DNA of 64,000 nt from Leptospira sp. (GCA_034439575.1 JAWXAQ010000016.1:288001-352000); one strand, 5' to 3'. Shown: positions 3,141-54,889, numbered from the stretch's first letter. Program-made: numbers and translations. The notes: generated from the letters alone by a model not told the origin.

Positions 3141-5792
3141 GTGAGAAAAATTTATTATAAAATATTAATCTTCTGTATTTTCCAGGCAAACTTTCTTTAT
3201 GCGGAGGGAACTTTGCTTGTGAAGGTAGTCCTTGTTCGCGGCCAAACGGGGAAGCCTGTCGCCAATGCAACTGTGGTATCAAAAAGTGGAAAAACTACTG
3301 GCATCACAGACAAAGAGGGAAAAGTTACATTATCCTTTTCTAGTGTCGGTTATCATGAATTAAAAATAGTTACAGCAGATAACATACAGAATGTGACAAG
3401 AGAGATTCGCTATAATGGACAAGAATTATTAATACCTATTAGAGAGATCAGTCAGACTGGTATCAATGTGAGCGGAGAGAGAGATAAAACCGTGCTTTCT
3501 CGTTATGGTTTCCAACAAGAAGATATTAAACGCATTCCAGGTGTGGCTGGGGATTCCTTAAAAGCCATACAAACTGTTCCTGGTGTTGTCATCGGGGTTC
3601 CTATCGGGGTATTGCCAACGGTATTTACAAATGTTGGTAACAGCATAACAGGAAATCCTTATTCCAATAGTGAGCGAGGAGATCTTTCTTTGCGCGGTGG
3701 TGGAACCAGACAAAACCAATTTTACTTTGATGGGTTTCCATTGCCCTATGCCTTCCATTTAGGAAATCAATCTTCCGTTTTAAACAATAATTTGATTCGC
3801 TCATTTGATGTTTATAGCGGCTCGTTTCCGTCAAGGTATGGTTTTGCGACAGGAGGAATCATAGCCATAGAAGGGACAGATAAAGTAGAAGACAACAGAA
3901 CAATCGTTAATGTTAATTTTTTCTTATCAGATATTTACAATCAAACCAAATTATTACCATCATTATCTATGATCACATCTGGAAGGAAAAATTATCCAAA
4001 TTTTGTATTGTTGCAGGCGTATCCTGCCGGTATTCCAGAAGATGCAAAATTTGCTGAATACCAAGATTTTCAGTGGAAATTAATATGGGATTTGGATTTA
4101 GATCATAGGATCACAGTACAGACGTTTGGTACAAGAGATAGACAGGCTTATACGAAACAACAAGCTTCGTATGAAAGAGGAGGTGAAGATCCGAGGCCTC
4201 CAACTGGATTAGATCGTGGATTTAGAACCGATGCTATGCGATATGTCTGGAAAGGAAAAACATTCCGAAATTCCATATCATATTCCAGAACTTCTTTTAA
4301 CGAATTTTTTGAAGTCAGAGTTACAAATCCATTGACAGCTGAAAATATTTTTGGACTTCAAAATAGAACTAGAGATTATTTGAGTTTCGTTGAACAAAGA
4401 TTTGAATGGGAACTTATAGAAGAACATTTAAAATTTGAATCGGGTCTTCAAATGAGATCCCGTGAAACAAATTTAAAAGGTGAAAATATTTCATCCACAA
4501 ATCGGCTGTTTGCTGATATATTTAATGATTTATTAAATTCCAGTGCACAATTTCGTTCTGTGATAGATGGAGATAGGATACGTTATCAAGAAACAGGTGG
4601 TTATGCAGAGTTTCAAGGTAGATGGAATGGATTTAGATTCACTCCTGGCGGTCGCGTTGATTCCTACAGTGGTTCACGTGAAGTAAATCTTTCGCCTCGC
4701 GTTACTGGTGGTTATGTGATAGAAAGCACTAAGACCAGTTTTCTTGCAGGACATGGAATTCATTATAATAGTCCTGTGAGTGTAGAGCAACTTTCACAAA
4801 AATCAGGAAATCCAAATTTATTTATGGAACGATCCGAACATAATTCCATTGGTATCCAACAAGAATTTGTGAATGGATGGTCGGTAAAAGTAGAGGCTTT
4901 TCGTAACATCTTTCAAAATGTAATCGTTGCTGATAATTTTATTACAGATCCATATGCACCTAATAATGATTTGCGAATCATTGCTAATGATCCCATCAAA
5001 GCTATCAATCAACCGCTTACACAAAGAAATTTAAATTATTCAAATTCAGGATATGGGCATTCGGATGGTGTGGAATTTTTTATCAAAAAAGCTAGAGATC
5101 CTAGAATTGAATCTGGTGCGTATGGTTGGATTTCTTATACCAATTCCATTACAAAGAGAATTAATAACCAAGCAAGAAGAACGACCGATGAAAATACAAA
5201 CAGAGCCTTGTTAAATGGCACTAGAGAGTTGATTGCCCAATCAAAAATCGGTACCAATTATATAAATTATTATGATGATAACCAATTTGAGATTATCTAT
5301 AATAATGATAGAGAAGAATTGTACGACCTTGACCGAAGGCACATATTAAATTTTGTGTTTGGTTATAAATTTAATCCTGATTGGCAAATAGGTGGAAGGT
5401 ATCGTTACTTTTCTGGAACACCATACACACCGATTATAAATTCCAATCGGGCCAATCAAGCGGCTACCTTTGGAGTGAATTTAAATTTCCCAGAGTATTC
5501 TAAAAATTATAATAGCGATCGATTGTTACCATTCCATCAAATTGATATTCGTATCGATGCCTTTGATCATTATTCTTGGGGATATATCAATGTGTATTTG
5601 GAATTTGTAAACTTTTACGGAAGGCAAAACGTAACTGGTTACAATTTTGATAATTTACAAGCATACCAAAGGGGAGTCAATCCATCATCAACATATGATA
5701 CTGTAAATTCTCCTTACATTCAGTCACAACGTCCGAATGGCAGTCCTATCAATTTACCTCTTGTGAATTTAGGTATGGAGGTGCGATTTTGA
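3141..5792 (+). CDS. TonB-dependent receptor with N-terminal carboxypeptidase-regulatory-like domain
   Basis: Signal peptide from GTG 3141. Plug motifs (DSLKAIQTVPGV, LSLRGG, FYFDGFP, SRYGFATGGII), SPR barrel motif, C-terminal Phe (MEVRF). Confidence 0.88.
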   Translation: MRKIYYKILIFCIFQANFLYAEGTLLVKVVLVRGQTGKPVANATVVSKSGKTTGITDKEGKVTLSFSSVGYHELKIVTADNIQNVTREIRYNGQELLIPIREISQTGINVSGERDKTVLSRYGFQQEDIKRIPGVAGDSLKAIQTVPGVVIGVPIGVLPTVFTNVGNSITGNPYSNSERGDLSLRGGGTRQNQFYFDGFPLPYAFHLGNQSSVLNNNLIRSFDVYSGSFPSRYGFATGGIIAIEGTDKVEDNRTIVNVNFFLSDIYNQTKLLPSLSMITSGRKNYPNFVLLQAYPAGIPEDAKFAEYQDFQWKLIWDLDLDHRITVQTFGTRDRQAYTKQQASYERGGEDPRPPTGLDRGFRTDAMRYVWKGKTFRNSISYSRTSFNEFFEVRVTNPLTAENIFGLQNRTRDYLSFVEQRFEWELIEEHLKFESGLQMRSRETNLKGENISSTNRLFADIFNDLLNSSAQFRSVIDGDRIRYQETGGYAEFQGRWNGFRFTPGGRVDSYSGSREVNLSPRVTGGYVIESTKTSFLAGHGIHYNSPVSVEQLSQKSGNPNLFMERSEHNSIGIQQEFVNGWSVKVEAFRNIFQNVIVADNFITDPYAPNNDLRIIANDPIKAINQPLTQRNLNYSNSGYGHSDGVEFFIKKARDPRIESGAYGWISYTNSITKRINNQARRTTDENTNRALLNGTRELIAQSKIGTNYINYYDDNQFEIIYNNDREELYDLDRRHILNFVFGYKFNPDWQIGGRYRYFSGTPYTPIINSNRANQAATFGVNLNFPEYSKNYNSDRLLPFHQIDIRIDAFDHYSWGYINVYLEFVNFYGRQNVTGYNFDNLQAYQRGVNPSSTYDTVNSPYIQSQRPNGSPINLPLVNLGMEVRF

Positions 5793-50823: not shown

Positions 50824-52536
50824 TTAAATTTTTAAGAAAAAAATATCCTGTAGTTTTTTTTGTGATTCATTTGGTTCATCGATAAAGGAAAGTTTTTTGT
50901 TTTTATAGCAAAATCCGACCTCTAACATAATTTCTTTGGTGTGTCCAAATCGAGAAATTAAAAAGTGAACCCTTTCTTTGGGTTGAAGCATTTTTTCAGC
51001 ACGATCAAACATTGATTTGTTGATCCGTTTTCCGTTCATCGCGATAAGTTCATCATCTAACTGTAAGTCGAATGAAGTTTCATCATCAGAAAATAGGATT
51101 TTATTAACATATAAATTCCCATTTTTCTCCTTAACTTTGAATTTCAGATCCGGTGAAATATCTGATTCAATTCTAAATAAGCCAATAGATTCAAGATAAT
51201 CATCAACCGGTATTTTGATAGGTTTAATTAGATATGGGTCAAATTCTGTTTTCAAATCTATTCCTGTAGCTTCTTTGGCTGTATCAAAAAATTCCTGTTT
51301 GGTGAATCCTCTATTCTTTTGAATATGATACTTTGTGTATAAGAGTTGCATGATATCACGAAAAGATTTATTTCCTTCAGACTTACGTAAAATATAAAGG
51401 ATCATACATAAAATTAAAACGGCACCTTTCGTATAATAAGAGACGGTCAAATTATGACTATTTCCATTTCTTTTATAGTATTTTGTCCAAGCCGTGAATG
51501 ATGAATCTTCTAAACTCATTAAATTTTCGGCAATTGTTTCATCCAAAGAAAAGATATCACTTTGTAGGCGAACGACAAACTCATCTTTAGATAAAAAGTT
51601 TGATTGATATAAAAAATATATATCGTAGAAACTTGTCGCTCCTTCAGCAATCCAAAGTTCCTTAGTTAAGTTGGGATTTTGATAATCAAACGGTCCAAGT
51701 GCAATAGGCCTTATCCGTTTAATATTCCAAAGGTGAAAGTATTCGTGCGATAAAAGTTCTAATAATTTCTTATATTCTTCCTCATCGTTAATAAGCTCAG
51801 GGCTAAAAAAATTTATACTACTCGCTTTGTGTTCTAAACCTCCATATGAAGGTTGAGATAAATTGACAACAAACAGATAATAATCGTTTGGTGAATTTCC
51901 CATCCATGAAATTTGTTTGCTGGTGATGATTTTTAAATCATTCGCCAGTTTCTCCTTAAAATTATAAGGGATATTTCCTTCGACGACCATTTCATGTTGG
52001 CAATTTTCCGTTTCAAAAAGGATTGAATTTTGATTTGATAAGTGAATGGGGGAATCATACAATTCATCGATATTAATTGCAAAGAATTCGTTTTCATTCG
52101 CTGTTTTTTTCAAAGAAGTATAAATATTGCTAAAAAACTCATTCACATCGAATTTAATTGTTATCTGTGTATCTAATTTATTTTCTAAATATAAGAATAA
52201 TGCGGGTGGATTTATAAATCCAAAATCTTTGACAAGATAATTTGTCCTTACCGTATAATCTTCAAAGGCATAGATTATATATCTGATTTTTATGTTAGGT
52301 GATTCATTTTTTATCTTCCATTTATGTAAATGAACCTGCTCCCAATTTAAGTCTTTCCCAGTGATCGAATCTTTAGCCGAGAATTGGTGCAAATGAGTTG
52401 AATAATCCCTAATCATATAAGAGCCCGGAGTCCAAGTGGGCATAAGGAGATTTGTATATTCACCTATGGCTTGTAAGTTTAGAGTGACTTCATAATAATG
52501 TTTGTGAATATCTAGGATCTGGACTGAGTAGTGCAA
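50824..52536 (-). CDS. M61 glycyl aminopeptidase with PDZ domain
   Basis: MPTWTPGSY, GGLEH, SHEYFHLWNIKRIRP, LWIAEG, SYYTKG, C-terminal PDZ-like region. Confidence 0.92.
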   Translation of the reverse strand: MHYSVQILDIHKHYYEVTLNLQAIGEYTNLLMPTWTPGSYMIRDYSTHLHQFSAKDSITGKDLNWEQVHLHKWKIKNESPNIKIRYIIYAFEDYTVRTNYLVKDFGFINPPALFLYLENKLDTQITIKFDVNEFFSNIYTSLKKTANENEFFAINIDELYDSPIHLSNQNSILFETENCQHEMVVEGNIPYNFKEKLANDLKIITSKQISWMGNSPNDYYLFVVNLSQPSYGGLEHKASSINFFSPELINDEEEYKKLLELLSHEYFHLWNIKRIRPIALGPFDYQNPNLTKELWIAEGATSFYDIYFLYQSNFLSKDEFVVRLQSDIFSLDETIAENLMSLEDSSFTAWTKYYKRNGNSHNLTVSYYTKGAVLILCMILYILRKSEGNKSFRDIMQLLYTKYHIQKNRGFTKQEFFDTAKEATGIDLKTEFDPYLIKPIKIPVDDYLESIGLFRIESDISPDLKFKVKEKNGNLYVNKILFSDDETSFDLQLDDELIAMNGKRINKSMFDRAEKMLQPKERVHFLISRFGHTKEIMLEVGFCYKNKKLSFIDEPNESQKKLQDIFFLKI

Positions 52537-52593
52537 TTTGGAACCTTATAATATAGAGTCTTTCTATTTTTCCCTTTTTTGCCAAATGTTTTC

Positions 52594-52622
52594 TTGACAC
52601 TATTTCAGCGCAGTACTAGAAA
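52594..52622 (+). promoter_or_regulatory. sigma70-like promoter pointing into the intergenic element
   Basis: TTGACA (52594-52599), 17 nt, TAGAAA (52617-52622). Confidence 0.6.
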
Positions 52623-52628
52623 AGGTTA

Positions 52629-52810
52629 GCTAAGGTATGAGCAAAGGAGGTGGTCCATTTGGATAGTAGTTGTTACAACACAAGATTTTTGACCCGCGAG
52701 GTGGCTGGGCAATAAGCCTTCCGCATTGTTGCAAAACCGACCAGTCGCAGTCTTCCCAAGTTTCGAATGTTGGTCACTTTCGAGCTTTTGCAGTCGCTTG
52801 GGAAGATTTC
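52629..52810 (+). ncRNA. Candidate structured small RNA / small-ORF mRNA with extended Shine-Dalgarno
   Basis: AAAGGAGGTGGTCCA (52643-52657) is complementary to the 16S 3' tail. Hairpins follow, including a perfect 10-bp stem 52751-52760/52797-52806. Confidence 0.5.
52659..52715 (+). CDS. Candidate 18-aa small protein MDSSCYNTRFLTREVAGQ
   Basis: TTG start 8 nt after AAAGGAGG; TAA stop. Below the ORF-track length cutoff. Confidence 0.4.
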   Translation: MDSSCYNTRFLTREVAGQ

Positions 52811-52825
52811 TCCTTACTCCTATTT

Positions 52826-54889
52826 TTATAGCACAAATTTTTGAAGTACTTCGCTTAACTTAGTACTGATATTTGTCATCCCATTCGAATTTTCATTCAT
52901 CACAGAAGATTGGTCAGAAAGTATTTGAGACCCATTCGAAATATTGATAGTCATATTTGACAATTCTTCAGTCGCCCGTTTCTGTTCTTCCGTTGACTGT
53001 TGTATGGCGATAATCAATTGAGAAATTTCGTTCATTTCACTAAATATTTCATCGGTTCTAAGTTTTTGGTCTTGGATCATTGGAATGATCTCTTTTGCTT
53101 TGTCAAAAATAATAGAGACTTCGGTTGTGATTTCACGCAAAACTTGTATTAGTTTACTTACTTGTTCACCACCTCTGTCTATTGAAGTCAAGGCTTCCTC
53201 GGATAAATTATTTATCTGAGAAACAGAGTCGGCAGCTTGTGCAGCAAGTTTAGAAATCTCTTCTGCCACAACGGCAAAACCTCGGCCGGATTCACCCGCA
53301 CGTGCGGCTTCGATAGCAGCGTTCAATGCCAAAAGACTAGTCCTTTCGGATATATTTGAGATCACATCTGAGAATTCAGTAATCATTTGAGACTTTTCTT
53401 GAATTTCAACTATGGCTTCCGAAGTTTTTGCCGCCATCGTTCTCCCTTCTTCTGCTTTTTGGTTGGCACCGACAGCGATGCGTCCGAAAGATTCTATTTC
53501 TTTAGTTACATTTTGTACTAAATCTTGAATTTTTGTCAAAGACCCATGGATTGATTTTGTATTTTGTACAGCTTGCGTGACATTACCGTTAATTGTTTCA
53601 CTTGAGGCATTTAATTGTTCGACGGTGGCACTTGCTTCTTCTGAAGAAGCCGCTTGAGACTGCGCCAAATCAGATAATTCAAATATAGATTTTTCCAATT
53701 GATTGGTAGACTTTGATAGCTCCCCACCTGACGTTTGTGCAACGGTCAATATTTGTTTGATGTTTTCAATCATTAATCCTAGAGAATTAACAAGATTGCC
53801 CATTTCATCATTTTTGGTATTGACAAGAGTTTGCGTAAGATCGCCTTTACTTGCACGTTCTGTGAACTTCAAAATTTCTTGGAGACGGATATCTACAAGC
53901 TTATGAAAGATAATATAATTTGCAATAATTGAAAATATAATCCCTGCGCCACCTAACAAAAGTGATAGCCAGAAAATAAATTGGATTTCTCCAGTGATTA
54001 AATGTAATGGATAAGAAATTCGGATGACCCAAGGTTTAGTGTCTTTAATCAAAGTTATCGATGAAGTTATGTGCAAGTAGTCTGAAGTAGAATAAATTTC
54101 ATTAGCGTTTTTTGCATTCAATACATCATTTATTTTATGATCCATTCCGTTTTCCCATTGGTTTGACTCTTTATCGCTATTAAATCCATTGAATAAAACA
54201 TATCCATTGCTCGCTATAATCGTGATTTTACATTCTCCATTGAATAATTTAACGTTTTGGAAATAACCTTGTATCGTCTCCAATGACAGGTCGGCTCCAG
54301 CGATCCCTACAAATTTATCATTTTGCAAAATAGGGTAAACAAGAGATACCATAGTAATTTCTTTTCCATCAACTTTATATTGAAAAGGTGGAATCAGTTC
54401 TACTTTTTTTGAAGTTTTGGGGATTTGATAAAAGTCAGATTCAGGTTTATCATAGTCTATCACTGGTTCTATGATGATGGAACCGTTTGATTTAACTGAA
54501 TAAGGAATAAATCTCCCCGTATTATCATGGTAAGTTGTATTTCTGAATTTAGCATCTAATCCATCATAGGCGTTTGGCTCAAAAACGAGATATGTACCGA
54601 GAATAGATTCGTTTGAAGCAGTCAAAACATTCATTAACTTCATTGCCCTGTTGCGATCTAAAATTTTCCCATCTTCCAAGAATTTTTTTAACAAATAAGC
54701 TTCTGTCAGTGGGGTTGAAATATAAGAGACAATATCAAGTTTAATTTTTTCGGAAAGTAGGTTGAGATTTTCTATCGTATCCGATTTTGTTTTATTATAT
54801 ATAACTATGGAAATGATGATAAGAATGATACCGAGAGTTAAAAGATTTATAAATGAAGTACCTACAGCTAATCTTTGTTTGATAGTCAT
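52826..54889 (-). CDS. Methyl-accepting chemotaxis protein (Cache, HAMP)
   Basis: Two TMs, Cache-like [43 protein letters not shown]. Confidence 0.95.

Follow-up and report, generated by a model that had tools for sequence, protein, structure and literature searches.

A stand-alone small RNA of Leptospira with an extended Shine-Dalgarno sequence and a conserved micro-ORF, remotely related to actinobacterial Ms_IGR-5

Described relatives of the Leptospira RNA

Two described RNAs stand closest to the locus considered here, which lies at positions 52594–52810 of a 64,000-nucleotide (nt) stretch of Leptospira sp. DNA (GCA_034439575.1 JAWXAQ010000016.1:288001-352000; hereafter, the window, in which positions are counted from the first letter) and is an independent gene for an apparently abundant small RNA (sRNA) of ~183–185 nt, running from ~52628 to ~52810 on the plus strand. 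One of them, IGR-5 of Mycobacterium smegmatis, was reportedly described originally by Li and colleagues in 2013. One source (10.1101/2021.12.14.472595) presents it as a validated, uncharacterised, nicotinamide adenine dinucleotide (NAD)-capped sRNA from the MSMEG_5794/MSMEG_5795 interval, and two others list it (PMC10454040, PMC8079986). Nothing on a function, an open reading frame (ORF) or an extended Shine-Dalgarno (SD) sequence of IGR-5 was found among Creative-Commons PMC papers and bioRxiv. The other, HB_C2_N1105, appears in a supplement (PMC13224635) as a 190-nt candidate sRNA of L. borgpetersenii, encoded on the minus strand of chromosome 2 and labelled ‘igr,5’, where it is expressed under both conditions and recorded from 948 genome accessions and 355 taxa. 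It is a homologue from the pathogenic genus, with an ORF, core and hairpins that match those of the g21 loci described below, and it differs in that the catalogue entry begins inside the SD (GGTC) and is classed as intergenic or 5′ untranslated region (UTR). The corresponding main text neither mentions HB_C2_N1105 nor uses the terms ‘open reading frame’, ‘peptide’ or ‘small protein’; a search for the sequence string in the text supplements of PMC5243855 was likewise negative. The description of the locus as unannotated, given in an earlier note on this DNA, thus needs qualification: the window RNA does fall below the RF02471 cut-off, and its homologue is already catalogued as HB_C2_N1105 and it has a remote relative in RF02471.

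The relationship to IGR-5 was assessed with Infernal using the Rfam family RF02471 (Ms_IGR-5), whose description goes no further than an actinobacterial sRNA. The window matched this model at 18.8 bits (E = 0.038), below the curated gathering score of 45, in an alignment that spans the model at full length (1–184 of 184) on the plus strand at 52655–52813, with the 5′ end ~12 nt out of register. Scores between this value and the threshold were obtained at further loci from Leptospiraceae and relatives, the highest of them for a Leptospiraceae locus (L078: 39.2, L081: 30.2, L155: 29.4, L073: 26.8, L210: 24.5, L100: 21.4 bits), and all sub-threshold family matches were also full length, whereas actinobacterial loci with the same SD–ORF arrangement reached 49–73 bits. 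A reverse covariance model, built from 18 Leptospiraceae sequences only, recovered two non-Leptospiraceae spirochaete loci (66 and 74 bits) and, at E <= 1, 26 of the 32 RF02471 loci from actinobacteria, with 12 of them below 0.01 and 7 below 0.001; of 31 decoy loci in which the search pattern occurs by chance, it matched none. The anatomy is common to both groups: a start of the form ACAC..RGGAGGUGGUCC is followed by NTG, by ...GGAC NN GYGAGGUGGCUG, by a stop-codon hairpin, by a linker ..CAGUCACC and by a long terminal hairpin, and the RNA is single-copy, stand-alone and expressed. Differences include an ORF of 14–18 codons instead of 12, the AT-rich sequence of the Leptospira RNA, its apical loop (UGGUC versus GUCC) and the partner strand of its first hairpin (GACC versus GGAC). 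Based on the intermediate scores, the reciprocal covariance-model search and the shared anatomy, it is well supported that the window RNA is a remote, sub-threshold homologue of Ms_IGR-5; by the Rfam threshold it is not a member. Of 151 genomes sampled from the actinobacterial class, 107 contain RF02471 at a score exceeding the cut-off, 106 of these with a single match (the tally includes six unpublished genomes, none analysed further; L259 was omitted).

Relatives were also sought outside Leptospiraceae by sequence pattern. A looser pattern was present in one of 325 other Spirochaetota genomes sampled (G182), which encodes an ATG-start ORF, MNQRLWMTGEVAER, and a canonical terminator stem homologous to the 3′ hairpin of the window RNA, followed by T8. 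Among the 120 matches listed from species-representative genomes, 22 carried an E-V-A-x-x-stop signature behind the SD. The signature carriers among these listed matches are Leptospira species, metagenome-assembled genomes (MAGs) of Leptospirales, Spirochaetales and Spirochaetia, one Acidobacteriota MAG and, in the actinobacteria, Phycicoccus, Ornithinimicrobium, Ornithinicoccus, Oryzihumus and a Micrococcales MAG; the remaining 98 listed matches are due to chance and lie mostly within long frames of GC-rich genomes. Chance matches in Microbacterium (L139, L147, L154, L179–L181, L205) belong to a short repeat unrelated to the sRNA, in which GGAGGTGGCTGAGC is followed by a TGTCGAAGCC-like sequence, with three copies 84 nt apart in L139. 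No Rfam model reached its gathering score anywhere in the window, and the tmRNA, tRNA-like, 6S, signal recognition particle and RNase P families gave no match at E <= 10 in 52400–52950. A tRNA-like or tmRNA-like reading of GGUGGCUGAGC was rejected because ARAGORN was negative over 52000–53300.

The RNA can be compared with several better-known systems. Leptospiraceae and actinobacterial loci resemble leader-peptide attenuators such as trpL and hisL, which combine a short ORF, competing helices and a terminator, in having a short ORF, apparently with efficient initiation, that runs at its 3′ end and stop codon into helices, with a terminator-like hairpin downstream; unlike in those attenuators, there is no conserved downstream operon and no run of regulatory codons, and an antiterminator was not found. 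Dual-function RNAs such as SgrS/SgrT, RNAIII/hld and SR1/SR1P encode peptides of 26–43 residues with a function of their own and have known base-pairing targets. The present RNA is likewise stand-alone and joins a predicted small ORF to a structured, conserved non-coding part, but its ORF has only 12–18 codons and its conserved residues follow the pairing of the RNA. The prfB frameshift site carries an internal SD-like element near a stop codon, as does this RNA (GAGGUG, 9 nt ahead of the stop codon), which differs in lacking a conserved shifted frame past the stop. Extended SD motifs of Staphylococcus aureus are reported to form long duplexes with the anti-SD for strong initiation (PMC13009471); here, the pairing covers 13–15 nt, against a background of ordinary genes that have weak SDs or lack one.

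Distribution, transcript and genomic setting

All 24 of the other genomes searched within the genus contain the intergenic stretch that holds the gene, and none of 16 genomes from another family of the same order does. Its core is 83–94% identical within the genus, compared to ~70–80% for pieces of the flanking coding sequences. Using the pattern GGAGGTGGT-N(22–52)-GAGGTGGCTG, we found exactly one copy in 94 of 114 family genomes, distributed over six of 14 genera, and none with a reversed control pattern. The carriers are genera g1 (38 of 40 genomes), g13 (5/5), g16 (3/4), g20 (1/1), g21 (22/22) and g22 (24/24), whereas the pattern was absent from the eight genomes of g23 and from seven small genera represented by one or two genomes each. 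The conservation in relatives that the earlier note had proposed as a check therefore extends through the genus and to most of the family genomes sampled.

A sigma-70-type promoter can be read directly at 52594–52622 on the plus strand (-35 TTGACA, 52594–52599; 17-nt spacer; -10 TAGAAA, 52617–52622), as that note had reported. In the genus alignment, the -35 block (CAAATGTTTTCTTGAC) and the -10 block (GTACTAGAAAAGG) are conserved around a variable spacer, and the -10 block is followed by two or three variable bases and then by the near-invariant RNA body; TTCTTGAC is retained in other genera and in G182. Contigs from four RNA runs, placed on the homologous locus in a congener (L108; RNA on the minus strand there), revealed the transcript itself. 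One contig (run X16, mean depth ~600, a value that cannot rank expression) spans L108 3897–4083, or 187 nt, compared to a predicted 3895–4081, and an Illumina adapter abuts position 4083, so that the last three matched letters possibly belong to the adapter. The congener RNA starts, with this three-letter ambiguity, at the A of AGCTAAGG, 7 nt after TAGAAA, and by alignment the window RNA would begin at 52628 (A of AGCTAAGG, AGCUAAGG; at most 3 nt of ambiguity upstream). A contig from a different study (X19) covers L108 3894–4064. Aligned to the window, the ends of the X16 and X19 contigs place the 3′ end of the RNA at about 52809–52812, 4–7 nt past the 3′ hairpin. Because the contig of the divergent M61 peptidase gene bears the same adapter type at its own 5′ end, the sRNA strand corresponds to the plus strand of the window. 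A stand-alone plus-strand transcript, as predicted earlier, is thus present in the congener as a discrete RNA with the expected ends. Parts of L108 without contig cover in runs X10, X16 and X18 were not used as evidence.

In the window, the gene lies between two minus-strand ORFs that encode an M61 peptidase (50824–52536) and a methyl-accepting chemotaxis protein (52826–54889). The M61 gene is upstream, divergent and adjacent only in g1 and g13. Upstream of the gene in g21 and g22 is a membrane protein gene, and a co-oriented patatin-like gene is adjacent downstream only there; other genera have different neighbours, and the downstream gene is often convergent. Among actinobacteria, the neighbours encode an aminotransferase IV, a THAP4-like haem-binding protein, a PNP oxidase or a citrate synthase. 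A conserved neighbour was therefore discarded as a functional clue, given that neighbours differ both among the genera and among actinobacteria. In complete or near-complete assemblies (e.g., G005, G007, G010, G016, G023, G086 and G090; further examples are G048, G069, G073, G075, G078, G079 and G100), the RNA gene is located on the second-largest contig (~0.26–0.49 Mb), which suggests a conserved place on the small replicon. As a separate observation at L108, the contig of the M61 gene (4157–4238; window ~52536) starts at an adapter abutting 4157, and the ATG is at 4159 with the two bases between ambiguous; the M61 mRNA thus looks leaderless in the congener.

Extended Shine-Dalgarno, micro-ORF and base pairing

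The extended SD of the window RNA, AAAGGAGGTGGTCCA (52643–52657), is complementary to the 16S rRNA tail UGGAUCACCUCCUUU. The 3′ end of 16S rRNA reads ...GCGGCTGGATCACCTCCTTT in three family genomes (it is missing from the assembly of the window's own genome), and all 15 nt can pair with it, including one G-U. To place this length in context, sites seeded in register on GGAGG were scanned on both strands of the window's own genome. Longer complementarity occurred at only three sites, all of them antisense 16S gene fragments; the 15-nt site ties with one other as the longest non-rRNA match, followed by matches of 14, 13 and three of 12 nt. The tied site, AAAGGAGGTGATCCGA, is outside the window on the minus strand of contig C13 of the same genome (G000; script index 7264) and is followed 8 nt later by ATT ACG GAA; it may belong to an ATT-start gene such as infC. 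A 16S gene fragment on the minus strand of the window was considered and rejected, as Rfam scans gave no rRNA family match. An exact GGAGGTGGT is present in 94 of 114 family genomes, RGGAGGTG[GA]TCC is present in the actinobacterial members, and GGAGGTGATC in G182 and L155 is fully Watson-Crick to the tail.

The SD is followed at 52659–52715 by a micro-ORF of 18 codons with a TTG start and a TAA stop (MDSSCYNTRFLTREVAGQ), which is intact in 71 of 71 Leptospiraceae loci. Across these loci the start codon is TTG (45) or GTG (26) and never ATG, the spacing between SD and start shifts by single bases (7–9 nt), the ORF has 14, 15, 16, 17 or 18 codons with all differences multiples of three, and the start lies 27, 30, 33, 36 or 39 nt from the GAG codon. 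ATG starts occur in relatives outside the family (e.g., G182 and L155). Actinobacterial RF02471 loci have a 12-codon ORF, M-x-x-x-[WR]-T-[RC]-E-V-[AT]-x-x-stop, which was resolved by script in 27 of 32 loci (the remaining five failed the motif definitions); each of the 29 actinobacterial rows of alignment A2 shows ATG, TTG or GTG in one and the same column, with a 12-codon ORF. Every lineage examined combines the extended SD with an ORF of 12–18 codons, an NTG start and a stop whose position is fixed. The first base of the NTG alternates without a shift in position, lengths change only in threes and the stop does not move; these features argue for reading of the ORF by ribosomes, and the comparative data favour its real translation. 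Two elements proposed from the window sequence in the earlier note, namely the 15-nt pairing with one G-U and the 18-codon TTG ORF, accordingly stand, and the SD with a small ORF is conserved far beyond the genus. The same note suggested coupling to a second mini-ORF beginning at ATG 52637, which we do not uphold, as that ATG is found in just 16 of 51 aligned homologues.

Leptospiraceae peptides are strongly divergent in the N-terminal part and share the end [LMKS]-T-[RCG]-E-V-A-[EG]-[QR]-stop. The hallmark of type I toxins is missing, as the peptides are polar (e.g., MDSSCYNTRFLTREVAGQ and MNDSCCKQLTCEVAEQ) and have no hydrophobic stretch. A programmed frameshift was also rejected, because the +1 frame is open for just 7–12 codons in four of 23 representatives and the +2 frame closes after two codons outside g1. 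A 53-codon plus-strand frame through the RNA body (52670–52831) is open in g1 and closed in other genera, and is not considered meaningful.

The last codons of the ORF take part in a long-range helix. Codons GUG GCU GNN pair with a linker of the form NNCAG(Y)CACC, situated between the stop-codon hairpin and the terminal hairpin. In the window, an internal SD-like GAGGTGG and the 5′ strand of the helix (GTGGCTGG, 52701–52708) together occupy 52698–52708, within ORF codons E-V-A-G, and the anti-SD-like linker CCAGTCGC (52741–52748) provides the 3′ strand; GAGGTGGCTG is invariant in the family. Canonical pairs make up 92.9% of the 490 cells counted in 49 sequences of the two phyla, with a one-base bulge assumed after the linker CAG in the non-g1 spirochaete rows (16 of the 49); the count omits L210, L257, L267 and L274 (motif-search failure) and L259 (unpublished). 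The helix covaries, and its position 9 is occupied by G-C, A-U, C-G, U-G and U-A. When Glu is replaced by Gly in the genus of the window (GAG to GGG), the linker changes from UCAG to CCAG, and the replacement of Ala by Thr in actinobacterial L265 and L279 (GCU to ACU) turns a G-U pair into A-U. Read from the alignments, these two replacements show a constraint that acts on the RNA. Invariant third codon positions and residue changes linked to pairing argue that it is largely the RNA that sets the peptide sequence, and suggest that this sequence is a by-product of RNA constraints. Many G-U pairs of the helices would become C-A on the opposite strand, thereby supporting the plus strand as the functional one.

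Three hairpins accompany this helix. P1 (52652–52694; GGTC 52652–52655 with GACC 52691–52694, the start codon inside) is proposed from RNAalifold, which predicts it from invariant or wobble pairs only; it is weak in Leptospira (~-2 kcal/mol), and its actinobacterial counterpart GUCCG/CGGAC has duplex energies of -3 to -10.6 kcal/mol. P2 (52709–52732; GCAATA 52709–52714 with TGTTGC 52727–52732) contains the stop codon; by eye, its stem is kept across genera with changes on both sides (GCAGTA/TACTGC in g13; GCGGTAAGC/GCTTGCTGC in L077). P3 (52752–52805), also from RNAalifold, consists of a base stem (CTTCCCAAG 52752–52760 with CTTGGGAAG 52797–52805) and an inner stem capped by an apical loop TGGTC (52771–52775) that is invariant in the alignment. 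P3 is terminator-like, and in the window a pyrimidine-rich tail follows it. Compensatory changes affect 17 of 32 RNAalifold pairs, mostly in P3. The apical pentamer UGGUC recurs as the SD flank, with which the linker of most Leptospiraceae can alternatively pair at a similar predicted energy. Minimum-free-energy folds of single sequences gave no usable structure, and a candidate helix joining GCGA of the ORF to TCGC close to P3 was dropped since it fails in g13, L064 and L066. The motif GCAGTCGC (52790–52797), located in the P3 internal loop just before the 3′ strand, is near-invariant in Leptospiraceae (GCAG[TA]C[GA]C).

A proposed translation-coupled riboregulator and its alternatives

We propose, with a probability of about 0.5, that this RNA is an mRNA-like, translation-coupled riboregulator rather than the source of a functional peptide. 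An SD of 13–15 nt that pairs with nearly the whole single-stranded 16S tail would load 30S subunits very efficiently onto an ORF of 12–18 codons, which would be genuinely translated. Because the last codons GUG GCU GNN form one strand of the conserved long-range helix with the anti-SD-like linker, and the stop codon lies in the next hairpin, every ribosome passing through would have to open this core fold, helix and stop-codon hairpin alike. Refolding coupled to translation could then read the availability or access of ribosomes and alter what the 3′ domain, with its linker, UGGUC loop and terminator hairpin, is capable of. The peptide itself is probably not the product that matters. A wider version, in which Ms_IGR-5 and the Leptospira RNA represent one ancient ribosome-sensing device shared by at least Actinomycetes, Spirochaetota and an Acidobacteriota genome, is tentative and on balance doubtful. 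Its parts, all related to the 16S 3′ tail sequence, would be the near full-length SD, a second SD-like site within the micro-ORF and the anti-SD-like linker that locks this second site, forming a translation-driven switch that might report the cell's supply of free ribosomes or its capacity for initiation, or else the state of the 16S 3′ end. Such a switch would constitute a new riboregulator class, distinct from peptide genes and from ordinary base-pairing sRNAs.

Several results weigh against the proposed riboregulator. None of 2000 shuffles matched the observed value of the long-range helix, yet the shuffle was uncorrected for sequence relatedness and keeps, rather than tests, the register with the assumed bulge. 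In single-sequence folds, the plus strand does not outperform its shuffled versions (z = -1.19), but the minus strand does (z = -2.79). The extension of the SD (GGUC/GUCC) also fits P1 and, in most Leptospiraceae, the linker, so its conservation need not reflect pairing with 16S rRNA. String searches in the text supplements of two mycobacterial translation studies (PMC9094748, PMC4633059) gave no homologue of the ORF. A scan for consensus promoters and terminators listed neither element at the locus; TAGAAA lacks the final T demanded by the scan. Finally, a contig of run X10 (L108 3611–4014, window ~52694–53090; mean depth 262) extends from the interior of the ORF through the terminator and 283 nt further, and thereby covers the 3′ two-thirds of the sRNA and the 3′ end of the convergent chemotaxis gene. 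Read-through could account for this contig, as could an effect of assembly or a long 3′ UTR belonging to the convergent gene.

Alternative roles assign different weights to the coding and non-coding parts. The RNA could be chiefly the mRNA of a functional micropeptide of 12–18 residues with a conserved C-terminal T-x-E-V-A-x-x, the SD serving output and the 3′ structure stability. We consider this unlikely, even though the frame and the places of start and stop are kept in every lineage examined, T-[RCG]-E-V-A is common to Leptospira and actinobacteria, and, in actinobacteria, the Thr codon is free to vary at its third position. In contrast to that position, the third positions of GAG GUG GCU are invariant across phyla, the Ala-to-Thr and Glu-to-Gly replacements come with pairing-preserving changes in the RNA partner, and the residue after Thr is R, C, G or S while its codon is always NGY; the N-terminal part varies in sequence and length, and there is neither a maturation or partner gene nearby nor a conserved context. 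If coding were incidental or absent, the RNA might instead bind the 16S tail as a 30S sponge or decoy, or act as a factor for the rRNA 3′ end. The 13–15-nt complementarity, which is the (tied) longest non-rRNA match in the genome, would suit such a binder, as would the second SD-like GAGGUGG and the UGGUC loop, both of which are also complementary to parts of the tail, and the high contig depth in RNA runs, albeit a poor measure of abundance. A pure decoy would not need a start codon at 7–9 nt, lengths in threes and a fixed stop, yet these are kept in 71 of 71 loci, and the actinobacterial start alternates only among ATG, TTG and GTG; we regard this role as quite unlikely.

Two further alternatives connect the element to its neighbours. 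A cis-acting leader or attenuator, with read-through into a downstream gene or an antisense effect on a convergent one, is improbable. The short ORF, overlapping helices and terminator-like hairpin recall leader-peptide attenuators, the co-oriented patatin-like gene of g21 and g22 begins 300–440 nt past the SD, the L. borgpetersenii catalogue labels the homologue ‘igr,5’ and a possible UTR (PMC13224635), and the X10 contig continues beyond the terminator. Set against this, the identity and strand of the downstream gene differ among genera and actinobacteria (it is convergent in many actinobacteria and G182, and likewise in the window, g1 and part of g13 and g16), no single amino acid is over-represented in the ORF, and a conserved antiterminator pairing was not found, with the linker abutting the terminator stem. 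It is very improbable that the functional element resides on the minus strand, as the 5′ leader of the M61 gene or as the 3′ UTR and terminator of the chemotaxis gene, in which case CCUCC would serve as an anti-SD. The better minus-strand z-score (-2.79) would fit this, P3 could be a bidirectional terminator for the convergent gene, and the sRNA body is continuous with the 3′ end of the chemotaxis gene in the X10 contig. However, the M61 mRNA contig of the congener starts at most 2 nt from its ATG and 74 nt from the sRNA 5′ end, genera with two different neighbours retain the form of the element, conservation covers the promoter, start and stop codons of the plus strand, and G-U pairs are frequent in the helices.

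The new elements of this work are the link across phyla, a conserved micro-ORF behind a near full-length anti-16S SD, and a helix that ribosomes would open. Two unconnected catalogues (Ms_IGR-5 and HB_C2_N1105) now prove to describe one old and widespread family, a single-copy RNA of most actinomycetes and most Leptospiraceae sampled, including the pathogenic genus. The micro-ORF, the SD against nearly the whole 16S tail and the helix predicted to be opened by ribosomes yield a concrete, testable mechanism in tractable hosts (saprophytic Leptospira and Streptomyces). If the RNA does report or tune the capacity for translation, it would be relevant to the control of growth in two groups in which strong SDs and classical sRNA chaperones are uncommon.

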